DNA of 4,666 bases from a virus (Duplodnaviria; Heunggongvirae; Uroviricota; Caudoviricetes), in IMG/VR virus record IMGVR_UViG_2531839646_000003, one strand, 5' to 3'. The position numbers and the translations under genes are program-made. Position 1 is the first letter of the stretch; every line of letters starts with the position of its first letter. Under the pieces are notes generated by a model that saw only the letters and a program-made list of their open reading frames with translations, searched no databases and was not told where the DNA came from. Below are positions 2,145-2,903 of the stretch, in pieces.

Positions 2145-2903
2145 TTAAAGACTTAACGAGAAGCCTTTTCGGGAATTTCGATCTGACAATCTTGAAATAT
2201 CCTGTAGAGTACGGCGCATTTCTTCCGTCAGATGCTTGAAGGCGTTAAATTCGGCGACAGCTGCATCGACGTTATAGCCCTTGCTGTGTAGCTCGTTGAG
2301 GATGCGCATAGTTGGGCTTGGCATATCGAAGAGCACAGAAACGTCCAGGTTAAGAGTTTTTCGATCAACATAGCTCATCATGGAGTAGGGGTGATGCTCT
2401 GAAAACCACGAGAGAGGGTAGTTGATAGATAGTGTTGATTCTGGAAGCTGAAGTTGTTCTGGGATTTTTTGACTGAAATAGCAGTCTTCCAGTTTTTCGA
2501 ACACTTCCCACGCCCGATCGGTTTCGAGCATTTTTGCGTGACGGGCTGCGCCGCGTTCTGTCCAGAGGATGAGGGAGCGGGCTTTCGGGGAAATTTGTAA
2601 CCCTCTTAAAGATGGTTGCAAATTTTGTGAGTTACTTAAAGTAACCCGCAAATTTTGTGAGTTACTTAAAGTAACCCGCAAATTTTGTGAGTAGTTTAAA
2701 GCTACCCGCAATTCTTTAAGGTCATTACCAACAACTTTGAAAAAGTGTTTCCCTTCAACGAAGCGTACTTTGTTCTCATGATGATTCTGGCGAATACGCA
2801 CCGGCTCAGTGCCGTAAAGCTGCGCCAAAAGTTCGGTGGTAATAACAGGAATCTGGTTATGGGTGATCGGGGAGAGAGTTTCAACAGAAATTTTAGTTGT
2901 CAT
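2145..2903 (-). CDS. ORF6N-domain protein, paralog 2, 252 aa, with internal 10-aa tandem repeat and a distinct C-terminal region of unknown function
   Basis: Track ORF 2145..2903. N-terminal IPVITTELLAQLYGTEPVRIRQNHHENKVRFVEGKHFF and central [33 protein letters not shown] blocks match paralog 1. Between them lies LRVALNYSQN-LRVTLSNSQN-LRVTLSNSQN-LQPSL, encoded by the 30-bp tandem repeat. SD AGAGGG is about 8 nt upstream of the ATG at 2903. The C-terminal roughly 110 aa (KIPEQLQLPESTLSINYPLSWFSEHHPYSMMSYVDRKTLNLDVSVLFDMPSPTMRILNELHSKGYNVDAAVAEF...) is unrelated to the paralog-1 C-terminus. Confidence 0.75.
   Translation of the reverse strand: MTTKISVETLSPITHNQIPVITTELLAQLYGTEPVRIRQNHHENKVRFVEGKHFFKVVGNDLKELRVALNYSQNLRVTLSNSQNLRVTLSNSQNLQPSLRGLQISPKARSLILWTERGAARHAKMLETDRAWEVFEKLEDCYFSQKIPEQLQLPESTLSINYPLSWFSEHHPYSMMSYVDRKTLNLDVSVLFDMPSPTMRILNELHSKGYNVDAAVAEFNAFKHLTEEMRRTLQDISRLSDRNSRKGFSLSL
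2473..2579. repeat. 107-bp segment perfectly identical to 1543..1649 (direct repeat, copy B, inside ORF6N paralog 2)
   Basis: Same 107-nt string as copy A. Both copies start at the same codon phase (codon 81 of paralog 1, codon 109 of paralog 2) and encode [37 protein letters not shown]. Confidence 0.9.
2618..2707. repeat. 30-bp tandem direct repeat, 3 copies (2 perfect, 1 with about 5 mismatches), with degenerate flanking copies extending to roughly 2588..2737; in-frame within ORF6N paralog 2
   Basis: Unit gcaaattttgtgagttacttaaagtaaccc at 2618-2647 and 2648-2677, then gcaaattttgtgagtagtttaaagctaccc at 2678-2707. Each unit contains the inverted repeat GTTAC-TTAAA-GTAAC. A period of 30 is a multiple of 3, so the reading frame is preserved. 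Confidence 0.9.

Follow-up and report, generated by a model that had tools for sequence, protein, structure and literature searches.

A coding palindrome at a fixed position of ORF6N genes and its in-frame tandem amplification in an antirepressor-like gene of a lambdoid prophage

The window analysed here, a stretch of 4,666 nucleotides (nt) from the IMG/VR virus record IMGVR_UViG_2531839646_000003, corresponds to the nin region of a lambdoid prophage of the Stx type, with all genes on the minus strand. One of its two genes for proteins with an ORF6N domain, called paralog 2 in the following, contains four palindromic 30-nt units in tandem. Sequence comparison indicates that the array arose by slippage-type in-frame amplification, that the palindrome is family-wide in ORF6N genes and that its symmetry goes beyond what the protein requires. 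On balance we favour the reading that the array is an amplified native coding palindrome of the ORF6N family, the symmetry of which is itself selected and serves as a cis element at the DNA level. The features on which this reading is built are the following.

2145–2903, minus strand: paralog 2, ORF6N-domain antirepressor-like gene of 252 amino acids (aa), which holds the array (list of open reading frames (ORFs); Pfam PF10543, E 2e-18)
2592–2711, minus strand: array of four in-frame 30-nt palindromic units, residues 65–104 (Tandem Repeats Finder, repeat search, reading frame)
2682–2711, minus strand: unit 1, LRVALNYSQN, dyad centre 2698 (reading frame)
2652–2681, minus strand: unit 2, LRVTLSNSQN, dyad centre 2668, perfect 15-nt palindrome, 16/19 pairs when extended
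2622–2651, minus strand: unit 3, LRVTLSNSQN, identical to unit 2, dyad centre 2638
2592–2621, minus strand: unit 4, LQPSLRGLQI, dyad centre 2608, 15/17 pairs, different arms (AACC.TCTT / AAGA.GGTT)
2619–2687: 69-nt quasi-palindrome, 28/34 pairs, centre 2653 (palindrome scan; long hairpins in RNA and DNA folds)

The units stand head to tail, their length is a multiple of three and the reading frame runs through all of them. Tandem Repeats Finder called positions 2618–2711 with a period of 30, 3.1 copies, 92% matches and no indels, and a repeat-family search found the 30-nt spacing from 2591 to 2710, so that the in-frame array described in the first-pass annotation is real. Its list of units, two perfect and one imperfect with degenerate flanking copies, held for the two identical units; there are, however, four units in all, two of them diverged, and the stretch 2712–2737 upstream of unit 1 is not a further copy (13/30 positions match the unit in direct reading). 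Unit 1 differs from unit 2 at five nucleotides, all in the inner arms, and two of the changes are compensatory pairs. Unit 3, judged by its identity to unit 2, is a recent duplication. Unit 4 shares 18/30 nt with the core unit and is homologous to the single unit of the second ORF6N gene (paralog 1, see below).

The core of the palindromic unit is the perfect 15-mer GTTACTT-T-AAGTAAC, and the palindromes extend to 16/19 pairs at 2619–2657 and at 2649–2687 and to 15/17 pairs at 2591–2625; per unit the palindrome measures 27–35 nt. The small palindrome GTTAC-TTAAA-GTAAC seen earlier in each unit was correctly taken for a real nucleic-acid-level feature, but it was drawn too short. Because two identical palindromic units adjoin, they form together the 69-nt quasi-palindrome. 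The array palindromes are the strongest of the window (scores 11.5, 12 and 19); of 200 shuffled versions of the window 0.5% had a palindrome that attained 11.5. The predicted folding of the 191-nt region is exceptional, with z values of −4.5 (RNA) and −4.3 (DNA). The inverted repeats lie wholly inside the ORF and both arms are translated.

Paralog 2 matches PF10543 with 66.9 bits (gathering score 27.8) and phrog_1760, annotated "anti-repressor", with E 1e-121 (profile length 232); E. coli O157:H7 chromosomes and Stx2 phage 1717 carry a gene 100% identical to it. Its residues 12–125 align to positions 3–86 of the ORF6N profile, which leaves about 30 extra residues. Three further features bear on the origin of these residues.

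1209–1889, minus strand: paralog 1, ORF6N and P22AR_C antirepressor gene, 226 aa (Pfam PF10543 and PF10548; phrog_377)
1668–1694, minus strand: the one palindromic unit of paralog 1, encoding HSMSLRPSV (11/13 pairs; mid-domain, homologous in position to the array)
2473–2579, minus strand: 107-nt block identical to 1543–1649 of paralog 1 (C-terminal half of the ORF6N domain; repeat search, pairwise comparison)

Since the PF10543 match of paralog 1 (69.6 bits, residues 10–97) is colinear with the profile, the single palindromic unit is a native part of the canonical ORF6N domain and not an insert. The repeat had been described as a segment inserted between the two halves of the domain; it is better described as an amplified native piece, one unit being present in paralog 1 and in all other branches examined. 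A selfish palindromic insert of the RPE or REP type was considered and rejected, for in the phage sequences searched the palindrome is confined to ORF6N genes and the single unit fills positions of the Pfam match. In the AlphaFold model of paralog 1 (pLDDT 75) the unit residues 66–74 form the end of helix 58–68 and the loop before strand 82–87; a Foldseek search of this model against the PDB gave no significant match.

The palindrome was followed through several sets of genes, namely 80 IMG/VR loci related to the window gene, 15 annotated phage records, 80 loci from species-representative genomes, 160 loci related to Lactococcus and Bacillus phage genes, and a canonical set of 92 loci fetched by the DNA pattern for the motif FTEQGVAM. 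In every set the strongest palindrome of the domain-coding segment was located 30–60 nt upstream of the (L/A)(W/F)TE.G codons. Counted as distinct genes it was at this position in 118 of 140 genes of the proteobacterial set, in 84 of 111 of the Lactococcus/Bacillus type and in all 64 of the FTEQGVAM type; the branches examined were those of E. coli, Acinetobacter, Yersinia, Lactococcus/Bacillus-type phages and gut-phage contigs. In canonical members of the family the palindrome encodes the L(R/K)SQ(I/F)VTS motif, as in the gut-phage genes in which GTTTGAGGTCACAAATTGTGACCTCAAAC encodes SLRSQIVTSN, the hallmark motif of the ORF6N family. The unit of Yersinia phage vB_YpM_44 (GTTTGAAAATCTCTTTAAGAGATTTTCAAAC) is perfect over 31 nt, that of Roseospira (CCGAGCAGAGGGTCTTAAAGACCCTCTGCTCGG) over 33 nt, and ORF6N dyads outscore every other palindrome both in the complete genome of vB_YpM_44 and in the initial 40 kb of Stx2 phage 1717.

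The arms diverge widely between units and yet remain complementary. Among 51 distinct units 89.9% of the cells were paired as compared with 58.2% in shuffles, changes had occurred on both sides in 12 of 12 stem pairs, compensating each other, and the covariation score was 0.752 versus 0.217 in shuffles and 0.08–0.15 in slid registers. Positions GT..CTT / AAG..AC of the arms are partly conserved. The amino-acid pairs that result (V/N, V/Y, V/H, L/E, T/S and S/R) are those of reverse-complementary codons; other compensations are synonymous, such as CGG/TCA to AGA/TCT or TCA to TCG opposite CGA. Between lineages the dyad sits in different registers with respect to the codons.

When the genes were resampled with synonymous codons, the protein and each gene's own codon usage being held, the palindrome was stronger than expected at p ≤ 0.01 in 47–49 of 89 genes of the proteobacterial set, in 31 of 111 of the Lactococcus/Bacillus type and in 58 of 64 canonical genes, whereas control segments of the same 89 genes reached this threshold in 1/89 and 0/89. 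The pairing therefore exceeds what the amino-acid sequence requires. A repeat that exists for the protein alone, with a beta-hairpin or linker module duplicated for structure and an incidental palindrome, is therefore highly improbable. The alternation of hydrophobic and polar residues in LRVTLS does suggest a strand, and the structure prediction that the first-pass annotation had called for draws two strands in the repeat (residues 74–80 and 84–90), but with low confidence (pLDDT 37–47 there, the poorest part of a paralog 2 model with an overall pLDDT of 49). Against such a module also speak the peptide, which is hypervariable while the pairing is kept, the loss of the palindrome upon synonymous resampling and the lineage-dependent register of dyad and codons.

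For gene pairs sharing the dyad centre the differences inside and outside the palindrome were compared. The ratios inside/outside were 0.31, 0.21 and 0.24 for synonymous differences per conserved codon in three divergence classes and 0.28–0.52 for differences at all sites, while at larger divergence amino-acid replacement was 24% inside the palindrome versus 14% outside. Few synonymous and many replacement changes are the pattern expected of a nucleotide-level constraint over a permissive peptide.

The main rival to selection on the symmetry is a neutral by-product. An ancestral quasi-palindrome in a permissive loop would be kept symmetric by template switching in replication, one arm serving as template for the other, and would have been duplicated by slippage, functionless as nucleic acid, with selection at the protein level only preventing its deletion. 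Template switching is known to create and to repair perfect stems (PMC8794818) and is reported to act in coding sequence (PMC8604942). Symmetry through the centre, which a hairpin does not need, is expected from copying, and so is the lack of a G-U bias; the loop tolerates very different peptides and lengths, and the palindrome has been lost in some genes. What agrees less well with a by-product is that synonymous change inside the palindrome is only 0.2–0.3 times that outside even in gene pairs 1–15 nt apart, that the palindrome is kept at one position in the three sets of genes from very distant hosts, with the counts given above, that it ranks first in vB_YpM_44 and in the 40 kb of 1717, and that among close relatives mirrored double changes are absent. 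We regard a neutral origin as unlikely, while taking it more seriously than any of the other rivals.

Several points weigh against selection on the symmetry and belong here. The sequences are phylogenetically related, so the counts overstate the number of independent events. The units used for covariation were selected on palindrome score. This makes the percentage paired too high and leaves the contrast with the controls as it is; resampling, control segments and shuffles address this selection only in part. Mirrored double substitutions, counted above against template switching, are equally missing as a sign of compensation among close relatives (0/22 pairs). About 10–25% of the proteobacterial and Lactococcus/Bacillus-type genes are without a significant palindrome, from which it is concluded that the palindrome is dispensable for the protein. 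Finally, template switching together with protein-level selection could also lower the synonymous rate. With these reservations we hold with moderate confidence that the dyad symmetry is under selection and that it acts as DNA.

An action at the DNA level is suggested, indirectly, by three properties, an A/T-rich centre, symmetry through this centre and no excess of G-U pairs. The innermost pair, which flanks the single central base, is complementary in 41 of 51 units and co-varies (UA 27, AU 11); it cannot form in a hairpin, and an RNA hairpin is therefore disfavoured. In the palindromes overall 36 G.T mismatches stand against 53 A.C mismatches, so that on the mRNA strand G-U pairs are not in excess; neither tolerance of G-U on the transcribed strand nor a loop free of pairing constraint, as expected of a transcript hairpin, was found. 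As a separate observation, A.C mismatches outnumber G.T mismatches on the coding strand 16 to 5 in the canonical loci (L338–L429) and 15 to 4 in the Lactococcus/Bacillus-type loci (L178–L337); this excess is G-U compatible on the antisense strand and comes from few independent lineages.

We consider it unlikely, for these reasons, that the units function as mRNA hairpins, each folding in the transcript and modulating translation, processing (for example by RNase III) or message stability, with an effect that more units would strengthen. The predicted folding is strong (z = −4.5), all 12 stem pairs co-vary, and antirepressor genes of this type are tightly controlled after transcription in the IsrK-orf45-AnrP system (PMC4825925), the architecture of which recurs upstream of the genes studied here. 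However, apart from the mismatches and the innermost pair, many units of the Lactococcus/Bacillus type are 15-nt A/T-rich palindromes that would be weak as RNA, and the array has no U-tract or terminator signature, belongs to no Rfam family and is not complementary to the upstream small RNAs. In detail, an intrinsic terminator was not found on either strand between 2400 and 2900, nor was an antisense promoter in the array; Rfam gave only sub-threshold look-alikes of miRNA precursors (20–23 bits versus gathering scores of 51–95); and the longest complementarity of the array to the upstream C4- and IsrK-like RNAs was 7 nt, no more than chance would give. A −1 frameshift at U_UUA_AAC was also rejected, the heptamer being present in some unit types only and the −1 frame stopping after about 12 codons.

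The resemblance to an iteron or operator array, noted at first sight, found little support on comparison. Such an array would be bound sequence-specifically by a dimeric protein (the ORF6N protein itself, the neighbouring Rha/Roi-like protein or the repressor), and it would agree with a dyad running through an A/T-rich centre, with a spacing of 30 bp (about three helical turns), with the partly conserved arm positions and with ORF6N being a predicted DNA-binding domain; sites inside the gene of the binding protein would have parallels in the lambda O iterons and, reportedly, in roi of phage HK022. Against it, where several copies of one recognition sequence would be expected, identity is limited to two of the four units, and other arms are found from unit to unit within a gene as well as in alleles whose proteins agree outside the loop; the variable positions, too, co-vary, and a protein that does not read them gives no reason for this. 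Nor were there related sites elsewhere. A second copy of an arm with up to three mismatches was found neither in the complete 49-kb genome of vB_YpM_44 nor in 40 kb of Stx2 phage 1717, apparent extra matches being single-arm chance matches, and the flanks of 106 loci held no excess of arm 8-mers (114 observed versus 107.6 expected). For the same reasons an operator common to the immunity region was rejected, and an iteron or operator array must be judged distinctly improbable. Resemblances to a LexA box, a CRP site, an IHF site, Hin/gix, attC and CRISPR repeats were rejected on reading the sequence.

In a special form of the DNA-level reading, the ORF6N DNA-binding domain or a structure-specific factor would have its cognate cis site in the palindrome; this is for now a tentative candidate to which we give a low probability. 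If true, each ORF6N gene would carry the site of action of its own product within the codons of its hallmark motif, with roles such as autoregulation, cis-preferential loading or recombination, and tandem amplification would multiply the sites. Gene and site would then form a unit conserved from phages of Gram-positive to phages of Gram-negative bacteria, and this would be the first functional handle on ORF6N.

Copy number is variable, and the protein varies in length accordingly, as the first-pass annotation had proposed. The loop, defined as the segment between GKHFF and LILWTE, was measured in the best 120 database proteins: 13 of them have 55 aa there, 86 have 45 aa and 16 have 35 aa. Alleles 100% identical to the paralog 2 protein on both sides of the loop have loops of 55, 45 and 35 aa, corresponding to four, three and two units: P0012 is a protein of 252 aa with a 55-aa loop, P0015, present on 445 contigs, one of 242 aa with a 45-aa loop, and P0098 and P0100 are proteins of 232 aa with 35-aa loops, each lacking different units. 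Steps of 10 aa are also seen in combination with other C-terminal domains (250/240/230, 244/234 and 203/193 aa). In complete genomes of E. coli there are runs of 39, 64 and 90–94 nt, which represent one, two and three LRV-type units; longer runs were absent from an evenly spaced sample of 30 of the 418 E. coli complete-genome records.

Over all fetched loci the loop lengths cluster at 25–26, 35–37, 43–46 and 55–59 aa, so that homologs have between one and four units and the copy number is not invariant; the allele of the window belongs to the longest class seen. Independent arrays of two to four units with unrelated arms are present in Acinetobacter, Pectobacterium, Citrobacter, Xenorhabdus, Symbiopectobacterium and a metagenome-assembled genome of Quinella. 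In the Pectobacterium loop (L124) the junction of two units with CACAG/CTGTG arms reads CTGT-TAAAAATG-ACAG and resembles a LexA box, CTGT-N8-ACAG; this junction was seen only in some multi-unit arrays of Pectobacterium.

The mechanism that we propose is as follows. With the symmetry itself selected, the palindrome would be a cis-acting nucleic-acid element that overlaps the protein code. As a dyad in DNA it would be either prone to form a hairpin or cruciform, or a duplex site that is read for its symmetry, and its role may lie in the control or marking of the antirepressor gene, or it may be a binding site of the predicted DNA-binding protein that this gene encodes. Units would be gained and lost via slipped-strand mispairing or unequal recombination between neighbouring units, a process that the long hairpin of adjacent identical palindromes would help. 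Such changes would be tolerable for the protein, since what the unit encodes is a helix end and a surface loop.

The iterons in the lambda O gene, at ori, are likewise dyads in tandem, set within the gene of a phage protein that binds DNA and between two parts of this protein, and their copy number differs between lambdoid phages; they share one recognition sequence, to which the N-terminal domain of O binds. The ORF6N array differs from them in its unlike arms and in that neither an A/T-rich unwinding region nor a replication gene is adjacent. In-frame variable-number tandem repeats (VNTRs), or contingency repeats, of bacterial surface proteins and phage proteins also have units that are multiples of three and are polymorphic in copy number, presumably by slippage; in ORF6N, unlike in ordinary VNTRs, the unit is itself a palindrome conserved from the single-copy state, and the range is one to four units. 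Roi of phage HK022, a DNA-binding protein of the nin region that resembles antirepressors, reportedly binds a site inside the roi gene, where an IHF site is also reported; the Roi-like gene of the window contains an IHF consensus as well (see below). Roi is of the Rha/KilAC family, not ORF6N, and its site is not known to be a family-wide co-varying palindrome.

The mitochondrial coding palindromes of Nematomorpha are likewise inverted repeats in protein-coding sequence with both arms translated, and there too protein function and a stringent secondary-structure element are kept together (PMC6649704). These repeats are up to 284 bp long, numerous, perfect and confined to a few mitochondrial genomes (PMC6649704), whereas in ORF6N there is one palindrome of 15–35 nt, at one position of one domain family, in many bacterial phyla and their phages, with arms that diverge and co-vary and with tandem amplification. 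Quasipalindrome template-switch mutagenesis provides a mechanism for coordinated changes of the arms and for perfect symmetry (PMC8794818); it is a mutational process and not an element, and by itself it predicts neither a low synonymous rate nor a fixed position. In the literature searched we found no description of the ORF6N repeat or palindrome or of an O157 VNTR in an antirepressor gene. From the coding palindromes of Nematomorpha, the lambda O iterons and the Roi site the ORF6N palindrome differs by its one position in a domain family, its co-varying arms and its recurrent tandem amplification.

The 107-nt block that paralogs 1 and 2 share is perfectly identical, as compared with about 62% identity of their N-terminal parts, which indicates a recent gene conversion or recombination between the two genes. 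The block ends 12 nt short of the array, a proximity that the first-pass annotation had read as a hint that the array marks a recombination junction. BLAST breakpoints flank the array; in a pairwise tract analysis, which had few informative pairs and is confounded by indels, breakpoints did not clearly cluster at the palindrome. Conservation of the block at the DNA level was rejected, distant homologs keeping the protein and not the codons.

Each of the two ORF6N genes is preceded by what appears to be its own control module similar to P1 immI and IsrK-AnrP (2904–3177 and 1890–2144, minus strand), composed as follows.

3177–3148, minus strand: promoter-like hexamers, paralog 2
3154–3102, minus strand: c4-a1b1, paralog 2
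3141–3065, minus strand: isrK-like RNA, paralog 2 (Rfam isrK, 74.7 bits, gathering score 50)
3086–3070, minus strand: terminator of the isrK-like RNA
3039–2956, minus strand: C4-like RNA, paralog 2 (Rfam C4, 66.7 bits, gathering score 45)
2900–3073, minus strand: leader ORF, 57 aa, phrog_20442, ending next to the start of paralog 2 (2903)
2132–2103, minus strand: promoter-like hexamers, paralog 1
2011–1928, minus strand: sRNA-Xcc1-like RNA, paralog 1 (Rfam, 79.3 bits, gathering score 53)
1900–2046, minus strand: leader ORF, 48 aa, phrog_35956 "anti-repressor", ending next to the start of paralog 1 (1889)

Promoter, IsrK- or C4-like RNA, leader ORF and antirepressor gene follow each other in the same order in IsrK-orf45-AnrP of Gifsy-1 (PMC4825925) and in c4-icd-ant of P1 immI. 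In these systems the published control acts at the leader, and nothing is described inside the antirepressor ORF. The leader ORFs of the window overlap the C4-like RNAs and abut the starts of the ORF6N genes, which suggests translational coupling as with orf45 of Gifsy-1 or icd of P1. A direct repeat, 2934–2954 and 3098–3118, flanks the C4-like RNA of paralog 2, and both copies contain GATTGGCGTC; the C4-like RNA is complementary to the copies over 7–8 nt, like P1 C4 RNA to its a1b1 and a2b2 targets.

The window encodes, besides the two ORF6N proteins, a Lar-like protein, NinB, a Dam methyltransferase, NinE, a 135-aa ORF, NinF and a Rha/KilAC (Roi-like) protein. The C-terminal domain of paralog 2 (residues 146–252; 2145–2470, minus strand) has no Pfam match but matches phrog_17980 and phrog_995, and its residues weakly match the 86-aa antirepressor Ant of PDB 5d50 (E 0.011); it may be a repressor-binding module. 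The 135-aa ORF is phrog_1511, of unknown function, and a terminator-like palindrome, AAAAAACCCAGCCGAAGCTGGGTTT, is located at 1167–1196 between it and paralog 1. The Rha/KilAC gene contains the sole IHF consensus of the window (AATCAATAACTTA, 407–419, minus strand), which is statistically non-significant (at least one match in 45 of 200 shuffles).

ORF6N is a widespread and barely studied domain of phage antirepressors. In phage Phi24B a nin-region homolog is needed for full induction of the late promoter (PMC3064807), and the palindrome draws attention to a probable site, cis-regulatory or prone to structure, in genes with an influence on the induction of Shiga-toxin prophages. Unit gain and loss explains the length polymorphism of ORF6N genes as well as breakpoints in their assemblies and alignments. 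There is also a warning in the data: amino-acid covariation in the loop (the pairs from V/N to S/R listed above) stems from pairing in DNA and not from contacts in the protein. If the reading favoured here is true, the ORF6N domain would contain an overlapping second code, maintained in different phyla through the choice of codons as the peptide drifts, and would be a clear case for the co-evolution of nucleic-acid structure and protein sequence.

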